Below are positions 200 through 59,310 of a stretch of DNA of 63,917 nucleotides, piece by piece. Position numbers and translations under genes: made by a program. The notes under the pieces are model-generated. The model did no database searches. It was given only the letters and a program-made list of their open reading frames with translations, and had not been told where the DNA came from. Position 1 is the first letter of the stretch. Every line of letters starts with the position of its first letter. Source of the stretch: an uncultured Gammaproteobacteria bacterium (GTDB lineage Bacteria; Patescibacteriota; Patescibacteriia; Magasanikbacterales; GWA2-37-8); NCBI GenBank assembly GCA_964570525.1, contig CAZMYO010000007.1:1-63917 (forward strand), in the 5' to 3' direction.

Positions 200-271
200 G
201 TCGAAAGTTGAAAGTCCATAAAGTCTGTAAAGTCGAACTTTTGACTTTAGGGACTTTATGACTTTATAGAC
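200..271. repeat. AAAGTC short-repeat array forming a long imperfect hairpin (four GTCnnAAA-type units, then four inverted GACTTT units)
   Basis: gtcgaaagttgaaagtccataaagtctgtaaagtcgaa followed by cttttgactttagggactttatgactttatagac. It lies between two tRNA genes. Confidence 0.8.
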
Positions 272-2766: not shown

Positions 2767-3729
2767 CTAAATACTCCCAACAAATAAATCGATCAGGAGT
2801 GACTGATCAGCCTGGCCGGTTTTTGTCTTAATATCAATATCAAGCAGGCGCTCGTACATTTGCTCAATTTTCCGGAGCGGATAGCGCTTGGCAATTGCCA
2901 TATTTTTTCTGGCCACAAACGGGTGGATGCCTAATTTTTTAGCCAGAATTTCACTGGAGACGGAGCCTTCCCGCTCCAGGGCATCGGCCATTTCCAAAAT
3001 AATTCTAAATTGCCATACCAGCAAACCAAACAAGCGCGACTCTTCTTCGCCCTGGCGGCGCTGTTCTTCTAATAATTTAAAGGCCAGCTTGTGGTTGCCG
3101 GCAACAATCGCGTCAACCATGTTAAAAGCATTGTCATCCACCTTCTCTTCCAAAAAAAGCTGGACAGCGGCAAAAGTAATAGCGCCGTTTCTCTGGTACG
3201 CAACTAGCTGATCGATGGTTGAATTTAAAAACCAGAGATCGTGTCCGCCGTTTTGGCAAAGATACGCGAGGGCTTGGTCTTCAATTTTTCCACCGCGCCC
3301 CTCGACTTCATTCTTTACCCAAGCCGATAATTTCGCTCCGGTAAGCGGGGCGAATTCCTGCGCGTACTTTTCTTTCGCCAAAATTCCTTGGAGCTCTTTG
3401 GCTTCTTTAACTTTACTCAAAGCCTCGCCCTGCCAAAAAATAATAATATTGCTCTCCGGCAGGCGATGGTTTTTAACGCGATCGGCAAGTTCTTGAAGCA
3501 GTTCTTTGTCGCTACTCGCTAAAACGTTATTCACAACCACCAAACGCCGCTCGGCCAAAAAAGGCGCGGCGACCATCTCACTCAAAATCCGCCCCGCTTT
3601 TTCTTTTTGCCCGTCTAGCAAAACCACGTTGTAGCCTTGCGGGTCGCGGTCGCGTTTGAACTTTTCAATAGATTGTCTAAGATACTGGCGGCTACGGAAA
3701 GTGTCGGCGCCGTGGAGAAAGATGATCAT
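2767..3729 (-). CDS. holA: DNA polymerase III delta subunit (HolA)
   Basis: 320-aa ORF beginning MIIFLHGADTFRSRQYL. Size and layout match clamp-loader delta. The call is by overall resemblance, not a strict motif. Confidence 0.7.
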   Translation of the reverse strand: MIIFLHGADTFRSRQYLRQSIEKFKRDRDPQGYNVVLLDGQKEKAGRILSEMVAAPFLAERRLVVVNNVLASSDKELLQELADRVKNHRLPESNIIIFWQGEALSKVKEAKELQGILAKEKYAQEFAPLTGAKLSAWVKNEVEGRGGKIEDQALAYLCQNGGHDLWFLNSTIDQLVAYQRNGAITFAAVQLFLEEKVDDNAFNMVDAIVAGNHKLAFKLLEEQRRQGEEESRLFGLLVWQFRIILEMADALEREGSVSSEILAKKLGIHPFVARKNMAIAKRYPLRKIEQMYERLLDIDIKTKTGQADQSLLIDLFVGSI

Positions 3730-5507: not shown

Positions 5508-6089
5508 TTGCATTCTATGTGCAAAAGTTCGTGTGCTCACCCCACGATGAAAGCTGTCGGCCTTCTCGCTCTGCGACTGGCGATCGGTTTTATTTTCATC
5601 ATGATGGGTTACGGCAAACTTGGCCCCAACCACGCGGGTACGGTTGGGATGTTCACCAGCCTTAAATTCCCCGCACCGGCATTCTGGACCAACTTAGTAG
5701 GCGTAGCTGAACTCCTTGGCGGCGTCATGGTTCTCCTCGGCGTCTACGTGCGCTATGCGGCCACCTGGCTAGCGATAGTCATAATAGTGGCTTTGCTCTC
5801 GGTGCATTGGGGCGGCCCGCTATTTGGCTACTTCCTGCCGGTGGCGGTCTTAGGTGGGTGCCTGGCTCTTATGGGCGCGGGCGCCGGCCGTTGGCGGCTG
5901 GTAAAAACACAGTGCCATTGCCCCGGTTGCCAAGCGATGGCAGGTGATATGGGTGGCGGTTGCGGCGGGAGTTGTGGCGGAAGCTGTGGCGGGTCATGTG
6001 GCGCTCCAAAAATGCAGTGCGCTTGCAAATCCTGCTGTGGCGGCAATTGCGCCTGCGGCGGCCTGGGTGGCTGTGCCTGTTGCAAGTAA
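5508..6089 (+). CDS. DoxX-family membrane protein with a Cys/Gly-rich metallothionein-like C-terminal tail
   Basis: Four hydrophobic helices (LRLAIGFIFIMMGYGKL...). The tail is CHCPGCQAMAGDMGGGCGGSCGGSCGGSCGAPKMQCACKSCCGGNCACGGLGGCACCK. The start is uncertain (TTG 5508, ATG 5517 or ATG 5547). Confidence 0.7.
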   Translation: MHSMCKSSCAHPTMKAVGLLALRLAIGFIFIMMGYGKLGPNHAGTVGMFTSLKFPAPAFWTNLVGVAELLGGVMVLLGVYVRYAATWLAIVIIVALLSVHWGGPLFGYFLPVAVLGGCLALMGAGAGRWRLVKTQCHCPGCQAMAGDMGGGCGGSCGGSCGGSCGAPKMQCACKSCCGGNCACGGLGGCACCK

Positions 6090-6147: not shown

Positions 6148-8862
6148 TTAGTTTTTCTCTCCCCAGTTTTTTACAATACTTACATGCGCTTCAATCGGTA
6201 CCCGAAGCTTGGCAACGTTTTCCATAACCTCCTTAACGATTTTACCGACCTCATCGGCCAATGATTTTTCTACTTCTAAAACCAGCTCATCGTGCACCTG
6301 CAAGATCATCTTAATCTTATCACTTTTGACTTTTGACTTTTGACTTTTGACTCTCCCATACACTTCTATCATACCCATCTTCATTAGATCGGCGGCTGTG
6401 CCCTGCACGGGGTGGTTAATGGCCATGCGCTCGGCAGCGCTCCGCAATTGAAAATTTTTTGAATTCAGTTCGGGAAGGTAACGACGACGACCGAATAGTG
6501 TCTCACAGTAGCCTTCTTTTTTGGTGAATTCGAGCGTTCGATCAATGTATTTTTTTACGCCGCTAAATTCTCTAAAATATTTCTCGATAAAAGCCTTGGC
6601 TTCGGCATGGCTAATCTCGGCCCGCCAACTCAATCCATAAGTACCCATGCCATACAGAATACCGAAGTTAACTTCTTTAGCGGCGCGGCGCATTTCCTTG
6701 GTAACCTTATCAAGCGGGACGTTGTTGATTGCCGCCGCTGTCGCCCGGTGAATGTCTTCGCCTCGCTCAAAAATCTCAATCATTTTTTTATCTTCCGCCA
6801 AGGAAGCCACGATACGAAGTTCAATTTGCGAATAGTCGGCGGAGACCAAAACATTCCCCGGCTCGGCGATAAAAGCCTCTCGAACTTCACGCCCAAGAGC
6901 CGTACGGATGGGAATATTTTGTAAATTGGGGTCGGAGCTGCTAAGTCTTCCGGTGGCGGTAACAACCTGGTTAAAAGTGGTGTGGATCCGACCGGTGGTT
7001 TTGTTGATAAGGGTAGGGATAACGTCAATATAGGTGTTTTGGAGCTTGCTAAGCTCTCGGTGTATTTCAATCTCATCGATAATGGGGTGAAGCCCGCGCA
7101 TTTTCTCGAGCTGCTCGGCCGACGTGGAAAGACCGGTTTTACCGCGCTTGATTCCCTCCACCGGAATATCCAGTTTCTCAAAAAGAATTTCCCGAAGCTG
7201 GAGCGGCGACGAAATGTTGAACTCTTGGCCAGCCAGCCGATAAATTTTCTCACTTACCTTTTTTATTTCCCCAGCTACCCGCCGCGACAGTTCAGCGAGC
7301 TTCTTTTCGTCAACCGCTACGCCATTAAGTTCCATCTCGGCCAAGACGGGGATGAGCGGCATCTCGACATTGGAAAACAGACCAAGGTTGTCTACTTTTA
7401 CAAGCTCGTGCCGCAGTTTTTCGCCGGCCTCGCTAATAAGCTCAAGCTCAACAGCGAGCGTCTTCGCGTCCAGGCCAAAAAGACTTTCTTGGCCGCTTCC
7501 CACTTTTAATTCTTTCCCCAAAATTTTTAAAACCACGCTTCCCATATCGTGCGCTCGGCTGCCGGGATTTAAGAGATACGAAGCGACCATTACATCAAAG
7601 AGTGTGTTTTTTACCACCACCTTTTCCCTGGCCATAATTTTAAAGAGTTGCTTCAGGTTATGGCCAACCAGCTCGATGTCTTTTTCCTCAAAAAGCTTGA
7701 GACAGGTTTTCACAGCCTCATCCTTCGCGTAAAAAGTTTCACGCCCCACCACCAACACCAGGCCGGTGAGATGACTGGTAAATAAATCGCCTCCCTCGGT
7801 AATGGCGCGGCCGGCAAATGATTTTTTCTCCTGAACTAATTTTATAAGTCGAATGGCTTCGGCAGAGGTTTTTATTTCGGAAAACTTGAGCTCCTGTTTG
7901 GGCAAGCGCCTCGGCGCTTTGGACTTTTTTTCTTCCGCTTCTATTTCCCCGCCTTTGCCCGGGACGCGTTTTAAAAGTGAAACAAATTCTAGTTTCTGAA
8001 ATAGTTTAGCCACCTTGGCGCGATCAAAATCTTTAAGGCGGCAGTCCTCCAGTTTAAAACGCAGGTCCGGCACATCGCAGTCAATGGCGGCAAGAGACTT
8101 GCTCATCAAAGCGCTCTCTTTGCCCGCTTCAAGCTTCTTAATTATTCCATCTTTAAATTTTGTTCGGAGTTCGGAGTTCGGAGTTCGGAGTTGTTTATAA
8201 ATTTCTTCAAGGCCGCCGACTTTTTGAATCAGCTCACTCCCGATTTTTTCTCCGATGCCGGGAACGCCGGGAATGTTGTCGGAGGCGTCACCGCGCAAAG
8301 CCTTGTAATCCACCATCAACTCCGGCCCAAAGCCATATCGCTGGGTAACAGCCGCGGCATCATACACCACCACATCACTCAACCCTTTGCGCAAGGTATA
8401 TACTTTCACGCCGTCCTTCACGAGCTGTAGCGTGTCCATGTCTCCGGTTACGATAAAGACTTCCAATTTATCGCTTTCGACTTTCGACTTTCGACTTTCG
8501 ACTTGTTCTACAATCGTCCCAATTACATCGTCCGCCTCATAGCCTTTCTTTTCATAAATAGGAAGATCAAAAACGCGTACCAAATCGTGCACGGTTGGAA
8601 TCTGATCGTAGAGTTCTTGGTCGGCTTTAACGCGAGTGGCTTTGTAGGCCTTAAATTTTTCCAAGCGCGCGGTGGAACCGCCGGCAACGTCAAAAGTTAC
8701 GGCAATGTGGGTGGGCCGCAGATCCTTCCATACTTTAAGAAGCATGCTGGCAAAACCATAAACCGCGTTTACGAGGTGGCCGTCTTTAGTCGTCATGGGC
8801 GGAAGAGCGTGGTAGGCCCGGTGGATGATGGCGTTGCCGTCTATTATGATGAGTCTTTCCAT
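6148..8862 (-). CDS. polA: DNA polymerase I
   Basis: 5'-nuclease N-terminus (IIDGNAIIHRAYHALPP) and family A motifs DYSQIELR, RRAAKEVNFGILYGM and QVHDELVLE. Start ATG 8862 (MERLIII) was chosen because the longer track ORF runs into tRNA-derived sequence. Confidence 0.95.
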   Translation of the reverse strand: MERLIIIDGNAIIHRAYHALPPMTTKDGHLVNAVYGFASMLLKVWKDLRPTHIAVTFDVAGGSTARLEKFKAYKATRVKADQELYDQIPTVHDLVRVFDLPIYEKKGYEADDVIGTIVEQVESRKSKVESDKLEVFIVTGDMDTLQLVKDGVKVYTLRKGLSDVVVYDAAAVTQRYGFGPELMVDYKALRGDASDNIPGVPGIGEKIGSELIQKVGGLEEIYKQLRTPNSELRTKFKDGIIKKLEAGKESALMSKSLAAIDCDVPDLRFKLEDCRLKDFDRAKVAKLFQKLEFVSLLKRVPGKGGEIEAEEKKSKAPRRLPKQELKFSEIKTSAEAIRLIKLVQEKKSFAGRAITEGGDLFTSHLTGLVLVVGRETFYAKDEAVKTCLKLFEEKDIELVGHNLKQLFKIMAREKVVVKNTLFDVMVASYLLNPGSRAHDMGSVVLKILGKELKVGSGQESLFGLDAKTLAVELELISEAGEKLRHELVKVDNLGLFSNVEMPLIPVLAEMELNGVAVDEKKLAELSRRVAGEIKKVSEKIYRLAGQEFNISSPLQLREILFEKLDIPVEGIKRGKTGLSTSAEQLEKMRGLHPIIDEIEIHRELSKLQNTYIDVIPTLINKTTGRIHTTFNQVVTATGRLSSSDPNLQNIPIRTALGREVREAFIAEPGNVLVSADYSQIELRIVASLAEDKKMIEIFERGEDIHRATAAAINNVPLDKVTKEMRRAAKEVNFGILYGMGTYGLSWRAEISHAEAKAFIEKYFREFSGVKKYIDRTLEFTKKEGYCETLFGRRRYLPELNSKNFQLRSAAERMAINHPVQGTAADLMKMGMIEVYGRVKSQKSKVKSDKIKMILQVHDELVLEVEKSLADEVGKIVKEVMENVAKLRVPIEAHVSIVKNWGEKN
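6324..6351. repeat. perfect heptanucleotide tandem repeat (ttttgac x4) inside polA
   Basis: Read directly from the sequence. It encodes KSQKSKVKSDK just upstream of motif C (QVHDE). Confidence 0.9.
8162..8192. repeat. perfect heptanucleotide tandem repeat (gttcgga x4 plus partial) inside polA
   Basis: Read directly from the sequence. It encodes QLRTPNSELRTK in the 5'-nuclease region. Confidence 0.9.
8474..8504. repeat. perfect heptanucleotide tandem repeat (ctttcga x4 plus partial) inside polA
   Basis: Read directly from the sequence. It encodes VESRKSKVESDK in the 5'-nuclease domain. Confidence 0.9.
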
Positions 8863-8905: not shown

Positions 8906-8927
8906 CCCGATCTTTCCAAAAATTTAG

Positions 8928-9001
8928 AGGCCACGGCGGGATTCGCACCCGCGAATAGCGGTTTTGCAGACCGCAGTGTTAGGCTACTTCACCACGTGGC
9001 C
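8928..9001 (-). tRNA. tRNA-Cys (anticodon GCA)
   Basis: Acceptor GGCCACG/CGTGGCC, anticodon arm GCGGT-CTGCAAA-ACCGC, T-arm GCGGG-TGCGAAT-CCCGC and discriminator U. Confidence 0.85.
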
Positions 9002-16339: not shown

Positions 16340-17179
16340 ATGTACTTCGGCGCGCATGTCTCTATCGCCGGCGGAATCTTTAATGCCCCGCTCAACGCGG
16401 CCGCTATTGGCTGCGAGGTGTTTCAAATGTTTACCCGCTCGCCGCGCGGCGGCCAGGTGAGCCCGCTTACCAAGGATGTTGTGGCTTTGTTTAAAAAAAA
16501 TTGTGAATTGACCGCGCAACGCGAGTGGTATATTCACACCCCCTACTTCATTCACTTTGCTTCCGGTAATAATCGTATTGCCTACGGTTCCATTTCGGTT
16601 GTTCGGGAAGAACTGGAACGCGGCACCATTCTCGGCGCTCGCTATGTGATGACACATCTCGGAAGTTATAAAGATTTGGGAAGAAAAAATGGTTTTATTC
16701 AGCTTGTTGGCGGCCTGGAGAAAACCCTGGCGGATTACCGCGGCAAGACCCGGCTCCTCATTGAAATTTCCACGGGATCGGGCGAAGTAATCGGCCGTTC
16801 GTTTGAAGAAATCGCCGAGATTGTTCATCATCCCAAACTAAAAAAGTATGACATTGGAGTGTGCCTGGATACCCAGCACGCCTTCGCGAGCGGCTACGAT
16901 ATTAGGACGCCGAAAGCGGTTAAGACAACGCTGGAAAAATTTGATGCCACCATTGGCCTCGATAAGCTGCGGCTATCGCACTGCAATGATTCTAAAGTAG
17001 AGTTTGAGTCTTACCGAGATCGCCACGAGCATCTTGGCGCTGGATTTATTGGGGAATCCGGTTTTGCCGCGCTTTTATCTAGCCCCCGGTTGCCGGATAT
17101 CAATTTTGTTTTGGAAACAGAGCCGGACGGAGTGCGCCAGGATTTAAAAATTTTAAAAGAAATCAGAAAAGTAATTTAA
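16340..17179 (+). CDS. nfo: endonuclease IV (AP endonuclease family 2)
   Basis: 279 aa with the pattern GAHVSIAGG, HTPYFIHFAS, THLGS, CLDTQHAF, LETEP, as in Nfo TIM-barrel enzymes. Confidence 0.9.
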   Translation: MYFGAHVSIAGGIFNAPLNAAAIGCEVFQMFTRSPRGGQVSPLTKDVVALFKKNCELTAQREWYIHTPYFIHFASGNNRIAYGSISVVREELERGTILGARYVMTHLGSYKDLGRKNGFIQLVGGLEKTLADYRGKTRLLIEISTGSGEVIGRSFEEIAEIVHHPKLKKYDIGVCLDTQHAFASGYDIRTPKAVKTTLEKFDATIGLDKLRLSHCNDSKVEFESYRDRHEHLGAGFIGESGFAALLSSPRLPDINFVLETEPDGVRQDLKILKEIRKVI

Positions 17180-17187
17180 AATAATTT

Positions 17188-17213
17188 GGCCCCCCGAAGT
17201 ACTTCGGGGGGCC
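17188..17213. terminator. bidirectional GC hairpin terminator
   Basis: ggccccccgaagtacttcggggggcc. Confidence 0.7.
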
Positions 17214-17228
17214 AGATTTGCGGCCGGA

Positions 17229-17459
17229 CTAAATGAAAATCTTCGGCCGCTGGAGGTAAAGGCGTTGATCAACGACTCGGTCGCCGCAGGCCATGCACAC
17301 CTGCTTCTTCCGGGCGCACTCGGCGCACCACTTCATCTTCGAATAAGGAGCGTTGTGCCCGCACAAGGCCGGACTCACTTGAGTGGTATACATATTGCCG
17401 CTACACGGCGGACAAAACCCCAATATCGACTTCTCTCCCTCGCTCCAGGTGCGTGCCAT
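17229..17459 (-). CDS. hypothetical zinc-ribbon protein (76 aa, GC-rich orphan)
   Basis: ATG at 17459 follows GGGAGG. Cys pairs are CPPC, CAEC and CMAC. Confidence 0.6.
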   Translation of the reverse strand: MARTWSEGEKSILGFCPPCSGNMYTTQVSPALCGHNAPYSKMKWCAECARKKQVCMACGDRVVDQRLYLQRPKIFI

Positions 17460-17566
17460 GTTGTGTCCTCCCGTTTTTTTGCTGATCTGTTCTGGCCGCC
17501 AGCTTCGCCCATCCACCAGCTGGCAGATTCGGGCTAACAATAATACAACTTGCTAAAATTGTCAAT

Positions 17567-17821
17567 ATGCCGGAAAAAATAATTAAAGTTCGCGTCCTCC
17601 CTCGCTCTTCAAAAAATGAGGTGGTCGGAATAATGGCCGATGGCTCGCTCAAAATCAAATTAACCGCGCCACCGGTAGACGGCAAAGCTAACGAAGCGTT
17701 AATTGAACTGTTGAGTGAACGCTTTAATGTCCCTAAAAATAAAATAACAGTCCGAAGAGGACTGCGAAGCAAGAATAAGGTGGTGGAGATACGCGCTGTC
17801 ATTGCGAGGAGCGAAGCATGA
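17567..17821 (+). CDS. DUF167 (YggU) family protein
   Basis: LKIKLTAPPVDGKANEALIELLSERF is the family signature. The last ~8 codons (AVIARSEA) are read out of a palindromic repeat element. Confidence 0.8.
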   Translation: MPEKIIKVRVLPRSSKNEVVGIMADGSLKIKLTAPPVDGKANEALIELLSERFNVPKNKITVRRGLRSKNKVVEIRAVIARSEA

Positions 17822-17882
17822 GCGACGAAGCAATCTCTTTGTCTGGGGGATTGCCGCGCTCCCTGCGGTCGCTCGCAATGAC
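17798..17882. repeat. ~85-nt palindromic element with GTCATTGCGAG...CTCGCAATGAC termini
   Basis: The terminal inverted repeats and the inner gcaatc/gattgc pairing were read directly. It belongs to the same family as 50794-50904. Confidence 0.8.
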
Positions 17883-17891
17883 ACTGCTGGT

Positions 17892-18173
17892 CTACGGAGC
17901 ATCTACCCCGCCTTTGCTCCATGGATTACATCGTAAAACTCTCCAAATAGTTTTTGGCAAGCCAACAAATAGGCCGTTTTTTTTTATTACTTGATAGCTG
18001 TACTCACTGCAGGTGGGGTAAAAGCGGCAGTAACCATGTGAAAAGAGCCTGCGCAACAGCCCATGGTCTGGTGAAATTGTTTTTTGATAAATTTTTATAA
18101 GCAATAAAATTGGCGTTCTTGGCAGAAATAAGAGAAATTTTATCACCTTGGTTACATTTTTCATAATTTCCAA
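17892..18173 (-). CDS. yidD: membrane protein insertion efficiency factor YidD
   Basis: CRFYPTCSEY signature and ...RCNPWSKGG. Confidence 0.9.
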   Translation of the reverse strand: MEIMKNVTKVIKFLLFLPRTPILLLIKIYQKTISPDHGLLRRLFSHGYCRFYPTCSEYSYQVIKKNGLFVGLPKTIWRVLRCNPWSKGGVDAP

Positions 18174-18240
18174 TATCTATTATCCAATAACCAATATCTT
18201 TCTGCTTAATTTTCCAAATATTGGACATTGGATATTGTTG

Positions 18241-19863: not shown

Positions 19864-19963
19864 TTTTTAGTTACTCTTTTAAACAAAAAATCTTTGTTTT
19901 TAAATGGGCCTGTGGTAGACTTACTTCACTATTGTTTTGCAATGTTTCTTCTCTTTTTACTTT

Positions 19964-21367
19964 ATGAACAACAACGAGCTTTGGCAGGCAGTCTTGGCTG
20001 AACTAGAACTTGCAATTTCCCGGGCTAATTTTGTTACCTGGTTCAAAAGCACGGGAATAGTCGCGAATCAACAGGGCCAAGTTATCTTGTGTGTTCCCAA
20101 TGCCTTTACCAGGGCCTGGCTCGAAAAAAAATATCACCAAATCATCATTAAATCTTTAGAGAGAATCACCGGTAAGCCCATTAAAAAAATCGAGTATAAA
20201 ATTGATAACATCAAAAATTTTATCGCTGAACAAGCTCTTGCTTCGACCCTCCCCTCCGGGGAGGGGGAGGGCCGCCCGGCCGAAGCCGCCTCCTACAGCC
20301 CGGCCGCCGCGGCCAAAAGCGCGCACAGCAACGGCGGATTTACTTTGAACCAAAAATATAACTTTGACAATTTCGTCGTGGGCAAGGGCAGCGAGCTCGC
20401 CTATGCTGCCGCGCAAGCGGTAGCCTCCCGCCCAGGAGAAGCCTACAATCCGCTATTCATCTACGGCGGAGTGGGACTGGGAAAAACCCATCTGCTTCAA
20501 GCGATTGGCAACGAAATCCTCAAAAAAAATCCCTCCGTTAACGTTATGTACGTGAGCGCCGAAAAATTCGGCAACGATTTTATTAGTTCCATACGCGACA
20601 AAACCGCTAAAGACTTCCAAACCCGCTACCGCCATATTGATGTGCTTCTAATTGACGATATTCAGTTCATTGCCGGCAAAGTAGAAACCCAAGAATCGTT
20701 TTTTCACACCTTTAACGAACTCCACCAACAAAATAAACAGGTTATTCTCACCTCCGATCGCCCGCCCAAAGCTATTCCGGCGCTTGAAGAGAGGCTTAAA
20801 TCACGGTTTGAGTGGGGTATGATTGCCGATGTTTCAGCTCCTGATTTTGAAACCAGGGTGGCTATCTTAGAGAAAAAATGCGCAGAAAAAAACTTTCCTT
20901 TGCCGATAAAAATTCTCCAAACCGTCGCTCTTACTGTTCAAAGCAATATCCGCGAACTTGAAGGCGCTCTCAATAAAATTATTGTCTTTCATCAGCTGAA
21001 GAATATTGAGCCTACGATTGAATCGGTGAAAAACCTTTTGATTAATTTGACCGCCTCTTCTCATCGCCAGTCGCTTACTCCCCTACAGCTTCTTGAGTCG
21101 GTGGGGAATTTCTACAGCCTTTCTCGCGATGAAATTTTAGGTAAAAATCGCGAAAAGAAAATCTCTCTGCCTCGCCAAATTATTATGTTCCTGATGCGCG
21201 AAGAGCTTAAAATGTCCTATCCCGCCATTGGCGAAGTGCTCGGCGGGCGAGATCACACCACTGCCATGCACGCCCATCAAAAAATTCTTAGAGAGACCGA
21301 GAATGACTTAAGGCTAAAACAGGAGCTTGAACTTTTAAAACAGCGTCTATACATAAACAACATTTAA
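19964..21367 (+). CDS. dnaA: chromosomal replication initiator DnaA
   Basis: Walker A GGVGLGKTHL, Walker B LLIDDIQF and the C-terminal DNA-binding helix region (GRDHTTAMHAHQKI). ATG at 19964 (MNNNELWQ) is preferred. Confidence 0.95.
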   Translation: MNNNELWQAVLAELELAISRANFVTWFKSTGIVANQQGQVILCVPNAFTRAWLEKKYHQIIIKSLERITGKPIKKIEYKIDNIKNFIAEQALASTLPSGEGEGRPAEAASYSPAAAAKSAHSNGGFTLNQKYNFDNFVVGKGSELAYAAAQAVASRPGEAYNPLFIYGGVGLGKTHLLQAIGNEILKKNPSVNVMYVSAEKFGNDFISSIRDKTAKDFQTRYRHIDVLLIDDIQFIAGKVETQESFFHTFNELHQQNKQVILTSDRPPKAIPALEERLKSRFEWGMIADVSAPDFETRVAILEKKCAEKNFPLPIKILQTVALTVQSNIRELEGALNKIIVFHQLKNIEPTIESVKNLLINLTASSHRQSLTPLQLLESVGNFYSLSRDEILGKNREKKISLPRQIIMFLMREELKMSYPAIGEVLGGRDHTTAMHAHQKILRETENDLRLKQELELLKQRLYINNI

Positions 21368-27729: not shown

Positions 27730-27767
27730 ATAAGTCAAAAGTCTGTAAAGTCGAAAGTCCGTAAAGC
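27730..27767. repeat. AAAGTC short-repeat array
   Basis: taagtcaaaagtctgtaaagtcgaaagtccgtaaagcgg. Confidence 0.75.
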
Positions 27768-27830: not shown

Positions 27831-27868
27831 TGAAAGTCGAAAGTCTATAAAGTCTTAAAGTTAAAAGG
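27831..27868. repeat. AAAGTC short-repeat array
   Basis: tgaaagtcgaaagtctataaagtcttaaagttaaaagg, directly upstream of mgtC. Confidence 0.75.
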
Positions 27869-28326: not shown

Positions 28327-29682
28327 TCAAGGGTGGATTTGATCAGTCCCGAGCGGGCTGGTTTTTTCTTTGCGCGCGATGAGTACAAGCGCCGCGAGAA
28401 TCCACCAGAGCATTGCCAAATCGTTTTTAAAATACGGCACGTCAACTAGTCCGTGGATAATGATTGCGGTAAAAGCGGCGATGAGTCCCGCGCCGAGAAT
28501 TTTATTTTGGTGTCGGTAGATTTTGTAAGCAGTAAGCGCTAGGCAGTAAGCAATAAGCGTGAACGAGAGCATGCCGGCGAGGCCGGTTTCCGTCCAAAAG
28601 TTTAGGAAAATATTGTGCGGGTAGATGAGGCGCTCCAATTCCTTAACATTATAAAAAGGTTTTTGCACTTTGCGGAAAAATTGTCGAATACCCGTTCCCA
28701 AAATAAAATTTTTGGGTGAGGAAACAAGATAGGTCCCAGTATACGACCACAGAGCAAGGCGGTTAGCGCCAGATTGGTTTTTAGCGGTAAGAAGTTGTTG
28801 GGCCAGGGGTGTTAAGGAAAACAGAAGACAAAGAACCGTGAAGCCGCCAACGATTTTTTTATAACCAAGCAACCATCCAAATACCAACATCCCCGCGCCA
28901 ACACCAACCCAGGCCCCGATTGAACGGGAAAGAAGCAGGGTGATAAAGGAGAAGGTGAAGATGAGGCCAAGAATAATTTTTTTGTTTCGGTTATGCTCCC
29001 AGAGCAACAGATAGGCTATTAAGGGAACGATGGGTCCGAGGTAGAGCCCGACTGCGTTTGGCGAAAGAAAAAACGAGGTTACACGTCCGGTTTGAAGAGC
29101 CGTCCAATCAACATTGCCAATGTGCCAGCCGGTAAAGTGCTGGACGATGCCAAATAGCGAGATGCTGAACGTAGAAAGAGCGAGGAACCAGATGAGGTCG
29201 GAGACACTTAAATCCCTCCTAGTAAGGAGGGTGGGGAGGTGTTGGCTAACGCGTGTCGAACACACCCCCACCCTTCTTTCTAGAGGGGAATTTGTTCGGC
29301 CAAGCAACAGCACAAACACCGCCATCGGTTCTAAGAAGTAGGCTCGCCACTGGCCAAGTGACGCGTACCACATGTCGCTCACGAAGATGCTTGCGATTGA
29401 CGCGAGAAAAAACAAAAAACAAAAAACAAAAAAAACTTTGTTGTTGGAGATCAGGTATCGTATGGCGGGCCAGTCGGAGCGGGCGAATTTTATAAGCCAG
29501 ACGAGAAATAAAATTCCGAAAGAGACTTCAAGGAGAGTGGTGGGTAGCGCTCCGACACTGAAGCGGATTAGGTAGGTTGGGAGGGAAATAATAAAAAGTC
29601 CGACGGCAAAACGGAAGCTGTGCCAGGTCAGAGCAATAAGCAATAAGCAATAAGCAATAAGCAACGGGTAGAGAAGCGGCAT
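28327..29682 (-). CDS. O-antigen ligase (Wzy_C) family polytopic membrane protein
   Basis: 451 aa with ~11 hydrophobic helices and a large loop region. It contains an in-frame palindromic-repeat insert. Confidence 0.6.
   Translation of the reverse strand: MPLLYPLLIAYCLLLIALTWHSFRFAVGLFIISLPTYLIRFSVGALPTTLLEVSFGILFLVWLIKFARSDWPAIRYLISNNKVFFVFCFLFFLASIASIFVSDMWYASLGQWRAYFLEPMAVFVLLLGRTNSPLERRVGVCSTRVSQHLPTLLTRRDLSVSDLIWFLALSTFSISLFGIVQHFTGWHIGNVDWTALQTGRVTSFFLSPNAVGLYLGPIVPLIAYLLLWEHNRNKKIILGLIFTFSFITLLLSRSIGAWVGVGAGMLVFGWLLGYKKIVGGFTVLCLLFSLTPLAQQLLTAKNQSGANRLALWSYTGTYLVSSPKNFILGTGIRQFFRKVQKPFYNVKELERLIYPHNIFLNFWTETGLAGMLSFTLIAYCLALTAYKIYRHQNKILGAGLIAAFTAIIIHGLVDVPYFKNDLAMLWWILAALVLIARKEKTSPLGTDQIHP
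29205..29295. repeat. composite palindromic element inserted in frame in the O-antigen-ligase-like gene
   Basis: ccctcctagtaaggaggg hairpin followed by cgaacacacccccacccttctttctagaggggaatttg (copy 2 of the 2717/49737 element). It is translated as NSPLERRVGVCSTRVSQHLPTLLTRRDLS. Confidence 0.8.
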
Positions 29683-29744
29683 GTATTATGTATTATGTAT
29701 GTTGGCGGGATGGTTCACGATATTTAATACTTGATACATAATAC

Positions 29745-50277: not shown

Positions 50278-50322
50278 ATTAGTCCGTAAAGTCATAAAGT
50301 CTATAAAGTCGGAAAGTTTTTA
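50275..50322. repeat. AAAGTC short-repeat array
   Basis: tagattagtccgtaaagtcataaagtctataaagtcggaaagttttt. Confidence 0.75.
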
Positions 50323-56404: not shown

Positions 56405-59263
56405 ATGCCTATCCCAAAGCTAACTAAGCGCTCTAGCCGTGTTTATGGAGCGGTTTTTATTCCCGAACGGCGCCTGCCTGCCGGCAGACAGGGCCCTCCC
56501 CGCGCTCGTTTTTCTGTGTCTAAAGTAAAGAGCCTGGTCTGGCTCACGCTCGTGGGCGCAGGGATCCTTGTTATAGGCGGTACAATCGCGGTCGCGATTA
56601 TTAGTCGGGATTTACCCGACCCCAATCATTTGGCCGATCGCCAGGTAGCCCAAAGCACAAAAATTTATGATCGTACCGGCGAACATCTTCTCTACGAAGT
56701 GTATCAGAACCAAAAGAGAACAATTGTCGGCCTGGATCAAATTTCTCCCCAGGCAATTCAGGCTACCGTGGCGATTGAAGACAAATATTTTTATGAGCAT
56801 AAAGGCATTCGCTTGCTAAGTATTTTACGAGCCGGTTTTAATAACCTGATCGGTCGACGCGCCGGATCGGGAGGGGCATCCACTCTCACCCAACAGCTTA
56901 TTAAAAATGCCGTGGTGGGCAACGAGCGCAGCTTTTTTCGTAAAGTAAAAGAGGCCATACTTGCTCTACAGCTAGAAAAAAAGTATTCCAAGGATGAAAT
57001 TCTTAAATTATATCTCAATGAAATTCCGTACGGTTCAACTAACTACGGCATTGAAGCGGCGGCGCAAAGTTATTTTCATAAGAGCGCCAAAGATTTAACG
57101 CTTCCGGAAGCGGCAACGCTCGCGGCCTTACCCAAAGCGCCCAGCCGGTATTTAAATAATTTGAACAGTCTGCGCGATCGGCGCGACGCGGTTCTGCGGC
57201 TGATGGCCGAGCAGGGATATATCACCGAAGCAGAAAAAAATGAAGCGCAGAACGCGGCTTTGCGCCTCTATCGCAATAACGGAATTTTGGACGCGCCGCA
57301 TTTCGTTCTGTACGTGAAACAGCTTTTAGCCGACCAGTTTGGGGAGACGCTCATAGACACCGGCGGATTTAAAGTCATCACTTCGTTGGATTACGATAAG
57401 CAAAAACTCGCGGAAAAAGTGGTAAAAGAAAATGGCGACCGTTTTGCCAAAGAGGCCAATGCCAACAACGCCGCTTTGGTTGCTCTTGATCCAAAGACAG
57501 CCCAGATTTTGGCGATGGTGGGTTCGCGCGACTATGAGAACGAAGACATTGACGGTCAATTTAATGTCGCGGTACTTGGAAAAAGACAGCCGGGCTCATC
57601 ATTTAAACCATTTGTCTATACGGCGGCTTTTGAGAAGGGTTACACGCCCGAGACGGTGCTTTATGACGTGACTACCGATTTTGATTTGCGCGCCGGAGAA
57701 GAAAAGTATAGCCCGAAAAATTATGATGACAAAGAGCATGGGCTTGTGACCATGCGCAAGGCTTTGCAGGGGTCGCTTAACATTCCCGCGGTGAAGACGC
57801 TTTATTTGGTTGGCATCAACAAAGCGATTGAATTCGCCAAACGATTTGGCTATACCACCTTTACCGGTGATTATGGATTAAGTTTGGTGTTGGGCGGCGC
57901 CGAAGTCAATCTCTTGGAGCACACCAACGCGTATGCCACCTTAGCCGATAATGGCGTTTATCATACGCCCGTGAGCATTCTTAAGGTAACAAACGATAAG
58001 GGCACATTTTTGGAGTGGAAAGAATCAGAGGGCGCGGAGGCAGTAAAGCCAGAACTCGCGGCCATCATTACTAATGTTTTGAGCGACAATGCTTCGCGAG
58101 CTTTTATTTTTGGCGTCAACAGCACACTCGTTTTGCCCGATCGGCCGGCGGCCGTCAAAACCGGTACGACTAACGACAATAAAGATGCTTGGACACTGGG
58201 CTACACACCTTCCCTTACCGCTGGCGTGTGGGTAGGCAACACCAAACCATCCCCCATGAAAGCGGGGGGGAATAAATTGGCCGGCGTAATTTGGAATCAG
58301 TTTATGCGCGAGGCTTTGAAGAATACTCCGGCGGAAGAGTTTCCCGCGCCGCCCGCGAATGATGCCGAGAAACCGGTGTTGCGGGGCGCGAGCGATGGAA
58401 TTAAACTGCCGATCAACCGGCTTACCGATAAAATCGCCACCTCATCCACGCCGGACAATTTGATAATTGAGAAAGTTTATTTGCCGCCGCACGATATTCT
58501 TCACTATGTGAATAAAGATGACCCGCGCGGCGCGGCACCCGTTAATCCCGGCGACGATCCGCAATATCAGAATTGGGAAAATGCTTTACAAGATTGGGTG
58601 GTGAGGCAGCAGCAGGCGGGAGTGGCCTTGGCTCTTGAGGAACCGCCGACCGGGTATGATACCGCGCAATCGGTTGAGCTAGAACCGGTTTTGGAAGTTA
58701 TTTCACCGACAGAGAACCAAGTGCTCGCGAGCCGAAACATAACGATTCAAGTTAAAGCGTCGGCTCCGCGCGGCGTGGCGCAGGTTTTGTATTATCTTGA
58801 TGGGTTGAGTATTGGCGCGAGCAGCCAATTCCCTTTTACGTTTAATTACTATGCTCAAAAATTAGCCAAGGGCCCGCACACCCTCAAAGTAATGGCCCAG
58901 GATGATACGGGCAACAGCGCGGTTAAGGAAATTTTTTTTGCTCTTCAGGCGGATTTTGACGCCCCCACATTTGACTGGTTTGATGCTTCGCCCTTGTCTA
59001 TCAAAGGCGACGCGTATCCCAGAACTTTTTATCTCGCGCCTTTTCGCTGGGAGGATGTTAAAGAGATAAAAATATTTTTGAAATCGGACGCGAACGAGAA
59101 ATGGATTTATACCTTTAATCATGCCGAGGATAAATTGTTCAACAATCAACTTATGTTTACGTGGCAACGCAGCCCCGGAGCGGGGAGCTACACCCTGCGC
59201 GCGGTGATGACGGATGCGTTGAATAATGTAATAGCAAAAGATTTGAATGTGGTTGTGCAATAA
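56405..59263 (+). CDS. class A penicillin-binding protein (PBP1A type; glycosyltransferase plus transpeptidase)
   Basis: GT51 motifs EDKYFYEHKG and GASTLTQQL. Transpeptidase motifs SSFKP, SLN and KTGTTND. A C-terminal Ig-like extension is present. Confidence 0.92.
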   Translation: MPIPKLTKRSSRVYGAVFIPERRLPAGRQGPPRARFSVSKVKSLVWLTLVGAGILVIGGTIAVAIISRDLPDPNHLADRQVAQSTKIYDRTGEHLLYEVYQNQKRTIVGLDQISPQAIQATVAIEDKYFYEHKGIRLLSILRAGFNNLIGRRAGSGGASTLTQQLIKNAVVGNERSFFRKVKEAILALQLEKKYSKDEILKLYLNEIPYGSTNYGIEAAAQSYFHKSAKDLTLPEAATLAALPKAPSRYLNNLNSLRDRRDAVLRLMAEQGYITEAEKNEAQNAALRLYRNNGILDAPHFVLYVKQLLADQFGETLIDTGGFKVITSLDYDKQKLAEKVVKENGDRFAKEANANNAALVALDPKTAQILAMVGSRDYENEDIDGQFNVAVLGKRQPGSSFKPFVYTAAFEKGYTPETVLYDVTTDFDLRAGEEKYSPKNYDDKEHGLVTMRKALQGSLNIPAVKTLYLVGINKAIEFAKRFGYTTFTGDYGLSLVLGGAEVNLLEHTNAYATLADNGVYHTPVSILKVTNDKGTFLEWKESEGAEAVKPELAAIITNVLSDNASRAFIFGVNSTLVLPDRPAAVKTGTTNDNKDAWTLGYTPSLTAGVWVGNTKPSPMKAGGNKLAGVIWNQFMREALKNTPAEEFPAPPANDAEKPVLRGASDGIKLPINRLTDKIATSSTPDNLIIEKVYLPPHDILHYVNKDDPRGAAPVNPGDDPQYQNWENALQDWVVRQQQAGVALALEEPPTGYDTAQSVELEPVLEVISPTENQVLASRNITIQVKASAPRGVAQVLYYLDGLSIGASSQFPFTFNYYAQKLAKGPHTLKVMAQDDTGNSAVKEIFFALQADFDAPTFDWFDASPLSIKGDAYPRTFYLAPFRWEDVKEIKIFLKSDANEKWIYTFNHAEDKLFNNQLMFTWQRSPGAGSYTLRAVMTDALNNVIAKDLNVVVQ

Positions 59264-59266
59264 AAC

Positions 59267-59310
59267 GTAGAGACGTAGCGCTGTAGAGACGTAGCGCGCT
59301 ACGTCTCTAC
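59267..59310. repeat. 28-nt perfect palindrome GTAGAGACGTAGCGCGCTACGTCTCTAC preceded by an extra half copy
   Basis: Read directly from the sequence. It lies between the convergent PBP1A and ruvB genes. Confidence 0.85.

Follow-up and report, generated by a model that had tools for sequence, protein, structure and literature searches.

In-frame heptamer tracts in the DNA polymerase I gene of a Magasanikbacteria-like bacterium: probable slippage microsatellites filtered by the reading frame

How does the gene of a replication and repair enzyme come to carry repeats whose unit is not a multiple of three, and what keeps them there? The question is posed by polA, the DNA polymerase I (PolI) gene on a 63,917-nucleotide stretch of DNA from an uncultured bacterium (contig CAZMYO010000007.1; the whole of this stretch is referred to here as the window), which contains three perfect 7-nt tandem repeats within its reading frame. 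A first-pass annotation, made from the letters alone, took such tracts to be the hallmark of phase-variable contingency loci, ‘not of polymerases’, and suggested that a family of repeats was colonising coding DNA. We propose instead, with a probability of roughly 0.6, that they are heptamer slippage microsatellites, filtered by the reading frame (+21 nt, or +7 aa) and by the tolerance of the surrounding protein for the resulting peptide, and trapped at four copies.

Each of the three arrays is 31 nt in length, comprises 4.43 copies and is 100% perfect at period 7, as judged from the sequence and with Tandem Repeats Finder (their positions, units and peptides are given in Table 1); the first-pass annotation had located them correctly to within 2 nt, and the peptides that it quoted are present. 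Because four copies of a heptamer amount to one copy plus 21 nt, i.e. plus seven codons, with the unit being read in all three frames, each tract remains in frame in spite of its 7-nt unit. In comparison to Taq PolI, tracts 1, 2 and 3 represent insertions of +7, +8 and +7 residues respectively, and the description of them as short, in-frame, hydrophilic inserts is thus accurate: K, S, Q, E and R abound in the encoded peptides, whose mean hydropathies are -1.5 to -2.1. The 904-aa PolI that contains them retains every catalytic motif.

In an AlphaFold model of the protein, built on 120 homologues (mean predicted local distance difference test score, pLDDT, of 84.8), all three inserts map to helix ends or to loops and coils, the first-pass annotation having asked whether they fall in surface loops. 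Tract 1 covers the end of helix 110-125 and the coil that follows, where residues 127-130 have pLDDT <50; tract 2 is placed between helix 218-225 and helix 231-235; and tract 3 occupies the end of helix 804-842 plus the coil preceding the motif-C strand (850-856), a block with a pLDDT of 63. Two of the three therefore fall in low-confidence regions of the model. At the level of the nucleic acid, RNA folding at the polA tracts is no better than that of shuffled sequences (z-scores of -0.9 to +0.8), the units GTCAAAA, CTCCGAA and GTCGAAA lack the G-runs needed for G-quadruplex potential, and the tracts are direct repeats without the inverted-repeat architecture of a hairpin.

It was also correctly anticipated that the gain or loss of one unit would shift the frame of polA. 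As computed, a one-unit change at any of the three tracts ends translation within 2-14 codons, so that the 904-aa protein would be shortened to 133-135, 237-238 or 849 aa, the 849-aa form being without motif C. Since one slip at any of them would cut PolI short, the tracts, each of which has 24 nt of self-homology, are genuine fragile sites.

What kind of process deposits such repeats? A scan of the window for perfect tandem repeats (period 4-12, at least three copies, at least 18 nt) returned five, all of period 7, against none in 50 dinucleotide-preserving shuffles; with one mismatch allowed, there were five tracts of period 7, one of period 9 and one of period 12, and none in the window of periods 4-6, 8, 10 or 11. 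A further 56 near-perfect heptamer tracts are found in 1.6 Mb of related loci. When the fetched loci and the window are pooled (1.70 Mb, with open frames of 150 aa or more over ~86% of it), there are 25 perfect runs of four or more copies for period 7, two for period 8, one for period 6 and zero for every other period. In coding DNA the period-7 runs are bimodal, with 35 at 16-20 nt, just four at 21-27 nt and 24 at 28-35 nt; the longer mode is centred on 31 nt (10 runs) and 32 nt (six runs), with a maximum of 35 nt, such that coding tracts have around four copies, never more than 5.0, and a gap is left at three. Tracts of period 8 inside genes likewise have four copies. In non-coding DNA (14% of the pool) the picture is different: runs of 2-2.99 copies number 33 for period 7, as compared to 2, 2, 11 and 13 for periods 5, 6, 8 and 9, a heptamer density some five-fold (~5x) that of coding DNA, and the heptamer runs fall away with copy number, from 33 (2-2.99 copies) to two (three copies) to one (at least four). 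This pattern is as expected from a duplication process that is specific for 7 nt and mostly adds a single unit, together with selection that removes frameshifts from genes.

Some individual non-coding arrays may be recorded here. A TTTAGGA tract of 4.43 copies, with stops in all frames, lies at positions 3594-3624 of locus L022, and clusters of several adjacent arrays, made up of different heptamers, are found in loci L020 (15506-15636) and L036 (9830-9936), the latter sitting directly upstream of polA.

The tracts are not a peculiarity of one gene. Outside polA, relatives carry tracts of at least four copies in the genes for TsaD (in three genomes), ValS, LigA and Fpg, and in a gene of the FemAB family; in the window itself, further heptamer tracts are found in an open reading frame (ORF) for an O-antigen-ligase-like (Wzy_C) membrane protein. 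The peptide encoded by a tract fits its local context, being hydrophilic in PolI and hydrophobic (mean hydropathy ~+3.0) in the Wzy_C membrane protein.

When 120 PolI homologues (62-80% identity) are aligned, the three tract-bearing loops prove to be the variable ones. At site 1 most relatives are without the insert, with a loop of 24-25 residues versus 30-31; the site-2 loop measures 30-34 aa in 114 of the 120 (29-34 aa in 115, the others having 36-53), and has no short form; at site 3 the loop varies from 23 to 64 aa. The peptide sequences at the tract sites are unconserved, and are dictated by whichever heptamer happens to encode them. Many relatives have loop peptides with a seven-residue periodicity, which back-translate to other heptamers (IKNQKSKIKN, IRNPKSEIRN, VRSPKSEVRS and VQSPKSKVQS). 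The 120 PolI loci, drawn from genome and metagenome contigs, contain 22 near-perfect period-7 tracts within polA, at positions equivalent to query residues ~125 (six loci), ~230 (nine loci), ~318, ~380-389, ~414-417 and ~838, with units that include ATCAAAA, ATCCGAA, GTCCGAA, CTCAGAA, ATCAAGA, ATCAGAA, CTCGAAA, ATATCCA and AATTTCC. That such tracts are ‘not of polymerases’ is untrue of this lineage. All 22, with lengths of 22-35 nt, belong to ORFs that are intact (~870-950 aa of open frame in those cases in which the contig spans the gene); among these tract-bearing orthologues we found no off-frame or length-variant alleles. The idea of lineage-specific insertions stands only in part: across Magasanikbacteria, and outside them too, sites 1 and 2 prove to be places where tracts recur or are orthologous.

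Close pairs of genomes allow the fate of individual tracts to be followed. No strain-level relative was found among genome or metagenome contigs, where the best match has 70% identity; the best match by way of the protein index has 80%. This closest relative, L121 (PolI 80% identical in amino acids and 74% in nucleotides, with third codon positions at 49%), carries tracts at all three PolI sites. At site 2 it has (ATCCGAA) x4, in place of the (CTCCGAA) x4.4 of the window, at exactly the same codons; because the same base differs in every copy, the change of unit shows concerted evolution. At site 3 (L121 3350-3383) the heptamers are replaced by an octamer, (GAAATCAA) x4, and the more distant L123 also has a four-copy octamer tract at this site (8493-8523; GAAATTAA); given that both have four copies, the ‘1 + 3 units’ rule is shown to hold for units of 8 nt as well. 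At site 1, L121 has a decayed tract of the AAGGGTG type.

A second pair is that of L123 and L124, which share 82% nucleotide identity. At site 1, L123 has (AAATCAA) x4.4 where L124 has non-repetitive DNA that is five codons shorter; at site 2, L123 has (GCAATAA) x~4, and L124 has non-repetitive DNA that is shorter by just one codon. From the L121 and L123/L124 comparisons it follows that, over the time that species take to diverge, the tracts are renewed or homogenised again and again, decaying in between to remnants with a seven-residue periodicity. A simple description of each tract as a clean insertion of +21 nt, which holds against Taq, fails between close relatives, where in L123/L124 the difference is five residues at site 1 and one at site 2. 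At site 2, as L123/L124 show, a tract can stand in place of non-repetitive DNA of almost equal length.

Repeats of another type are also found in these loops. In several relatives (P0026, P0034, P0050, P0074, P0098, P0100, P0111 and P0117) the PolI tract loops host longer in-frame inserts, such as CHPERSEGS... and VIARSEATKQS...GDRHASLAMT, which are typical translations of palindromic repeat elements. Since these occupy the same loops as the heptamer tracts, the loops are general landing sites for repetitive DNA.

We propose the following model for how the tracts arise and persist. A slippage-type duplication process, lineage-wide, active throughout the genome and strongly specific for steps of 7 nt (with a few of 8 nt), would leave mostly two-copy runs in non-coding DNA. 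In genes, the addition of one or two units would shift the frame and be purged by selection, such that the visible products would be those of ‘1 + 3’ units, or +21 nt. Survival would further be limited to stop-free units whose seven-residue peptide suits its surroundings, be they hydrophilic loops in soluble enzymes or hydrophobic segments in membrane proteins. A four-copy tract could then no longer change by a single unit without inactivation of the gene, and so would become trapped, or ‘frame-locked’. Such a tract may have one of two fates: decay by point mutation, to a remnant with seven-residue periodicity, or renewal, through in-frame contraction and re-expansion or conversion between units, which would keep young tracts perfect and allow the sequence of the unit to drift in all copies together. 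Seeding may occur by a microhomology of 3-4 nt, as the modal length of 31-32 nt (four units plus 3-4 nt) suggests. That slippage is the underlying chemistry is suggested by the tandem structure, the partial unit of 3-4 nt and the concerted evolution; we also infer that tracts are trapped at four copies, and that the inserts are near-neutral for the function of PolI.

Several points weigh against this model. The mechanism does not in itself account for period 7. To go from one copy to four requires that three units be added in a single event, or that a gene which is probably essential pass through two frameshifted states, and neither has been observed; homogenisation without a change in length, in that same gene, is likewise unaccounted for. 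Coding tracts of four copies far exceed the expectation from the non-coding fall-off of 33 : 2 : 1, and trapping or positive selection must be invoked to explain them. The sole non-coding tract with at least four copies, that in L022, also has 4.43 of them, and the frame filter may not be the only cause of ‘four’; the non-coding heptamer simple sequence repeats (SSRs) of Xanthomonas and Nostoc also favour four units (PMC4692102). At site 2 the tract replaces a sequence of near-equal length, instead of adding 21 nt (L123/L124), and no one-copy state is seen at this site among the aligned relatives. An AAAGTC core is common to six arrays in the window, which pure local slippage would not predict. 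Lastly, the sample is biased, and the tract counts from the pool are not independent of one another, since the loci were fetched via polA and some of the tracts at sites 1 and 2 are orthologues.

Might the inserts instead have been positively selected at the level of the protein, with the repeats serving to make flexible, charged loops or linkers in nucleic-acid enzymes, in the manner of Borg proteins? The K/S/Q/E/R-rich peptides do lie in loops of DNA- or RNA-binding enzymes; the length of the site-2 loop is kept, in the same 114 of 120 relatives, even where the repeat in the DNA has decayed or been replaced; there is the coding excess of four-copy tracts relative to non-coding DNA; and the tandem repeats of Borgs are reportedly selected to create disordered regions (PMC9879509). 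We nevertheless consider such selection unlikely, as the insert at site 1 is missing from most relatives, the peptide sequences are unconserved and simply follow the heptamer, and the units are not divisible by three, unlike those of Borg repeats within ORFs. The hydrophobic versions in a membrane protein, moreover, fit a tolerance filter better than they do a specific function.

Less probable again is the reading favoured by the first-pass annotation, in which polA is phase-variable: slippage by one unit would turn PolI off to produce a reversible, repair-deficient or mutator subpopulation, or, in the case of tract 3, would yield a polymerase-dead protein that retains only its 5'-nuclease. 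The length of the unit, the truncation that follows any one-unit change, the 24 nt of self-homology and the turnover evident in concerted evolution are all compatible with this, and heptamer SSRs drive phase variation elsewhere, as at hmw1A/hmw2A of Haemophilus influenzae (PMC8262952). Against it, the tracts have only ~4 units and never exceed 5.0 copies, all 22 tract-bearing PolI orthologues are in frame, and tracts also occur in the housekeeping genes for TsaD, ValS, LigA and Fpg. Their placement is also unlike that of phase-variable SSRs, which are enriched near the N-terminus (PMC3315296): the loops that hold the polA tracts tolerate insertions and are found in the middle of the protein or towards its C-terminus (aa 121, 224 and 839 of 904). 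In three sequencing runs (X1-X3; 7-12x depth) no contig was found with a unit left out and no indels were seen, though Logan contigs, being assembled at k = 31, break inside 31-nt tracts, and so give no independent support for copy number and are uninformative as to variants with an extra unit. Nothing in these results points to regulation of polA through its tracts, and the contingency-locus reading, with its claim of a ‘hallmark’, is unsupported.

A different challenge to frame selection as the cause of ‘four’ comes from the idea that some four heptamers are produced at once by a process that is dedicated or templated. Candidate routes would include microhomology-primed reiterative repair synthesis, re-annealing of flaps during Okazaki-fragment maturation, or conversion from other tract loci. 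Yeast rad27 and E. coli polA 5'-nuclease mutants do accumulate duplications flanked by direct repeats of 3-12 nt. The modal length of four units plus 3-4 nt would follow naturally, as would the 4.43 copies of the L022 tract, the replacement of non-repetitive DNA by a tract of nearly equal length, and the presence of related units within one genome (ATCCGAA and GTCCGAA in L087); the preference of Xanthomonas and Nostoc for four non-coding units (PMC4692102) points the same way. Non-coding runs in the loci studied, however, mostly have two copies, at least five unrelated units within 64 kb rule out a single template, and no candidate enzyme has been identified. In viral contigs, moreover, mostly outside long ORFs, the same units run continuously from 4.1 to 11.6 copies, and a limit of ~4 copies is thus no inherent property of these units. 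Exact four-copy tracts of polA-type units were also counted there, with a special cosmopolitan vocabulary in mind: 9, 31, 6 and 32 contigs carry them, as compared to 0, 4 and 3 in the case of composition-matched controls, but related phages are among the hits and we give the difference no weight. One-step writing is accordingly a distinctly improbable explanation. In its most far-reaching form, Candidate Phyla Radiation (CPR) bacteria, and perhaps other heptamer-rich lineages, would be equipped with a specific process by which a 10-nt seed (7 nt plus a 3-nt microhomology) is turned into about four heptamers in one step, for example by reiterative repair synthesis or by Okazaki-flap processing by PolI itself; the four-copy state would be its mechanistic signature, core enzymes would have their surface loops continually remodelled by the tracts, and slips of one unit at motif C would give a reversible, polymerase-dead PolI. 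We mention this as a long shot.

Two of the polA units, GTCAAAA and GTCGAAA, were noted at the outset as being shared with intergenic arrays, and exact two-copy runs of both are indeed found inside arrays with an AAAGTC core. There are six such arrays in the 64 kb, four of them intergenic and two being polA tracts. Those in intergenic DNA have a conserved core with a variable spacing of 7-9 nt, whereas the polA tracts are perfect tandem copies; two of the intergenic arrays end within a few tens of nucleotides of a start codon. They resemble motif clusters, and may be candidate regulatory elements, in a position comparable to that of the TAACTGA repeats. A further motif array, TACGAA(A) x3 followed by inverted TTCGTA x4, is found in the intergenic DNA before ORF 2767-3729, at 2238-2325.

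Could the polA tracts, then, be cis-acting DNA or RNA arrays, i.e. binding sites for a heptad-reading protein that are related to the AAAGTC arrays and comparable with TAACTGA repeats in 5'-untranslated regions or with the heptad operators of plasmids? Close downstream of the intergenic arrays there are indeed start codons or tRNA genes, and TAACTGA repeats upstream of start codons have been proposed as binding sites for a regulator (PMC4679880). This seems to us very improbable: no single binder would fit units that differ among the polA tracts, among genes and among orthologous sites, the tracts have no RNA structure, and the intergenic arrays are variably spaced where the tracts are perfect. 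The excess of AAAGTC is also modest, at 54 occurrences in the window versus an expected 40 +/- 6.6, a value reached in two of 100 shuffles.

The suggestion of a repeat family that colonises coding DNA survives only in part. In its favour are the six arrays with a common core and the occurrence of the tract words across the source community, where contig depth is 881, 616 and 342 in the three tract-containing bins, as compared with ~7-12 elsewhere in the gene; given this depth and the many different flanks, the polA tract words must occur at many other places in the community. However, the units of the third polA tract, of the membrane-protein tracts and of the tracts in relatives are unrelated to AAAGTC, and differ within a genome and between orthologous sites. 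The resemblance among polA units of the form NTC..AA probably stems in part from constraint, since by the genetic code a T within a purine-rich unit that is read in three frames requires C or T after it if a stop is to be avoided. A single templating unit or mobile element can be rejected, there being at least five unrelated units in 64 kb and different units at orthologous sites; what was called a family is better described as a genome-wide, heptamer-specific duplication process filtered by selection.

That the tracts are an assembly artefact, with longer or variable repeats having been collapsed by a k-mer assembler, is barely credible and was rejected: Logan contigs (k = 31) do break exactly at the 31-nt tracts, but the frame of the 904-aa PolI is kept across all three, many assemblies and projects, independent of one another, have equivalent in-frame tracts at the same codons, the identical protein P0002 comes from two separate samples, and a 31-nt tract is shorter than the reads and than the final k of usual assemblers.

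Table 1. Positions of polA, its heptamer tracts and other repeat-bearing features of the window
Feature	Position	Strand	Details
polA, DNA polymerase I	6148-8862	minus	904 aa, full-length; Pfam 5_3_exonuc_N, 5_3_exonuc, DNA_polI_exo1, DNA_pol_A
polA tract 1	8474-8504	minus	CTTTCGA forward, (GTCGAAA) x4.43 coding strand; encodes VESRKSKVES; VESRKSKVESDK at aa 121-132; 5'-nuclease domain
polA tract 2	8162-8192	minus	GTTCGGA forward, (CTCCGAA) x4.43 coding strand; encodes LRTPNSELRT; QLRTPNSELRTK at aa 224-235
polA tract 3	6322-6352	minus	ACTTTTG forward, (GTCAAAA) x4.43 coding strand; encodes VKSQKSKVKS; KSQKSKVKSDK at aa 839-849; loop before motif C (QVHDE)
Wzy_C (O-antigen-ligase-like) membrane-protein ORF	28327-29682	minus	Pfam PF04932; further heptamer tracts, hydrophobic peptides
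Wzy_C ORF, heptamer tract	29632-29664	minus	(TATTGCT) x4.71 coding strand; encodes LLIAYCLLLIA, mean hydropathy +2.98
Wzy_C ORF, heptamer tract	29407-29433	minus	(GTTTTTT) x3.86 coding strand; encodes FFVFCFLFF, mean hydropathy +3.03
Wzy_C ORF, decayed heptamer tract	28525-28558	minus	GTAAGCA x4.9, 74% matches; encodes LIAYCLALTAYKIY; unit 1 nt off AGCAATA
Non-coding heptamer run	29681-29700		ATGTATT x2.9; overlaps Wzy_C ATG start (29680-29682) and extends upstream
Intergenic AAAGTC array	203-265		4-5 copies on plus, then 3 copies on minus strand; spacing 7-9 nt; between tRNA-Ala and tRNA-Arg; contains GTCGAAAGTTGAAAGTC
Intergenic AAAGTC array	27733-27759	plus	contains AAGTCAAAAGTC and AAAGTCGAAAGTC; beside tRNA-Ala(tgc)
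Intergenic AAAGTC array	27833-27854	plus	AAAGTCGAAAGTCTATAAAGTC; ~20 nt upstream of ATG of ORF 27877
Intergenic AAAGTC array	50288-50310	plus	spacing 8-9 nt; upstream of ORF 50366

How do these tracts relate to known systems? Heptameric SSRs are over-represented in many bacteria, according to a 2007 report as cited by Rehm et al. 2015 (PMC4692102); the tentative account given there of the excess is that 7 nt is the segment of DNA held in the active site of the polymerase, and detailed studies are few. With these SSRs, and with the short tandemly repeated repetitive (STRR) sequences of heterocystous cyanobacteria, the tracts described here share direct tandem heptamers at many loci, an outstanding period of 7 and polymerase slippage as a proposed origin. 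Theirs, however, are mainly intergenic and in large genomes, whereas those seen here lie in frame in the core genes of a small CPR genome, are locked at ~4 copies, are found again in orthologous loops and show concerted evolution. The GGGNATC repeats of Xanthomonas and Nostoc (PMC4692102) are similar in forming inverted pairs of arrays, as at 203-265 in the window, but are G-rich, form G-quadruplexes, range from 2 to 26 units and occur less often than expected in ORFs. Our units, read on the coding strand, are rich in A and have neither G-runs nor structure, and ORFs are enriched in them at four copies. The TAACTGA repeats of Beggiatoaceae, cyanobacteria and Bacteroidetes (PMC4679880) are heptamers in 2-6 copies found, like the AAAGTC arrays, upstream of start codons, and their rare copies in ORFs are tolerated mainly at the periphery of the protein; they differ in having one dominant unit per genome, with stops in all forward frames, where we see many stop-free units in conserved enzymes.

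The contingency loci of H. influenzae, hmw1A/hmw2A, are comparable in their heptamer unit and in that a change of one unit alters expression or frame; loci of this type (PMC8262952; PMC2651432) have long, copy-number-polymorphic tracts in surface or adhesin genes or their promoters, in contrast to the ~4 fixed copies, in housekeeping genes and always in frame in relatives, that are found here. Borg tandem repeats (PMC9879509) are the closest in what they do to a protein, being perfect, young and fast-evolving repeats that add hydrophilic, probably disordered segments to ORFs; their ORF units are longer and divisible by three, while the units of 7 nt in polA, and of 8 nt in some relatives, are not, and keep the frame only via 3n+1 copies. 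A last comparison concerns elements that are not tandem at all.

Rickettsia palindromic elements (RPEs) are short repetitive DNA that inserts into genes in frame and that essential proteins tolerate in their surface loops. The heptamer tracts are alike in being in-frame repetitive DNA, and palindromic inserts of such a type occur in the same PolI loops of relatives and in the Wzy_C ORF; the tracts differ in being tandem, not palindromic, and show no sign of mobility. In the Wzy_C ORF the element concerned (29210-29292) lies in frame, has 34-nt arms that are 79% complementary, and encodes NSPLERRVGVCSTRVSQHLPTLLTRRDLSV. A related hairpin element is found in intergenic DNA at 442-524, and the hairpin CCTCCT..AGGAGG, common to the two, has two occurrences versus 0.01 expected. 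The element at 29210-29292 looks like an insertion of the RPE type, or of the miniature inverted-repeat transposable element type, that has been tolerated within a gene.

We found no description in the literature of heptamer tracts in CPR bacteria or Patescibacteria. Heptamer SSRs themselves are known; what is new here is their coding-region, frame-locked and concertedly evolving form, in the core enzymes of CPR bacteria.

As to the gene and its setting, the product of polA combines, by Pfam, a family A polymerase domain (DNA_pol_A, E = 4e-154) with a 5'-nuclease domain and a 3'-5' exonuclease domain that is vestigial. Its true start is the ATG at 8862; the GTG at 8934, given in the ORF listing, was rejected because it would overlap with tRNA-Cys (8927-9001). 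Homologues of the product begin MxKxVIIDGN; the nearest has 80% amino-acid identity, and the closest ones are named as Candidatus Magasanikbacteria or Patescibacteria. Given these homologues and a gene content that also includes dnaA, RecQ, ribonucleotide reductase, PBP1 and H+-pyrophosphatase, the window is ordinary chromosomal DNA of a CPR bacterium, and Magasanikbacteria-like.

Other features of the window may be noted in passing. The dnaA gene (Pfam Bac_DnaA; positions 19937-21367 and 17168-18198) has AT-rich short repeats upstream, and the replication origin probably lies within the window, ~11 kb from polA. The ORF adjoining polA (5508-6089) has a Cys/Gly-rich C-terminal tail (GGGCGGSCGGSCGGSCG...CACKSCCGGNCACGGLGGCACCK), partly derived from a 12-nt repeat at 5959-5993; in L121 the ORF in the same position beside polA belongs to the DoxX family. 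A perfect 16-nt direct repeat (GTAGAGACGTAGCGCT x1.9) is found at 59267-59297, directly after the stop codon of PBP1 (56405-59263). A search of the window against Rfam returned tRNAs only.

Finally, these findings bear on how proteins are shaped in the smallest of bacterial genomes, where a mutational bias and the reading frame appear to act jointly. On the model that we favour, a duplication of 7 nt would enter genes only as +21 nt, giving rise to seven-residue loops in essential enzymes that would then be locked at four copies, and this may account for a part of the unusual insertions seen in CPR proteins. The model provides a simple rule, testable in any genome, that units not divisible by three should be found in 3n+1 copies, as well as a warning for annotation, in that tracts such as these are not to be called contingency loci from their letters alone. 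The specificity for 7 nt, common to cyanobacteria and Xanthomonas, is an old question, and one that the dense and numerous genomes of the CPR could help to address.

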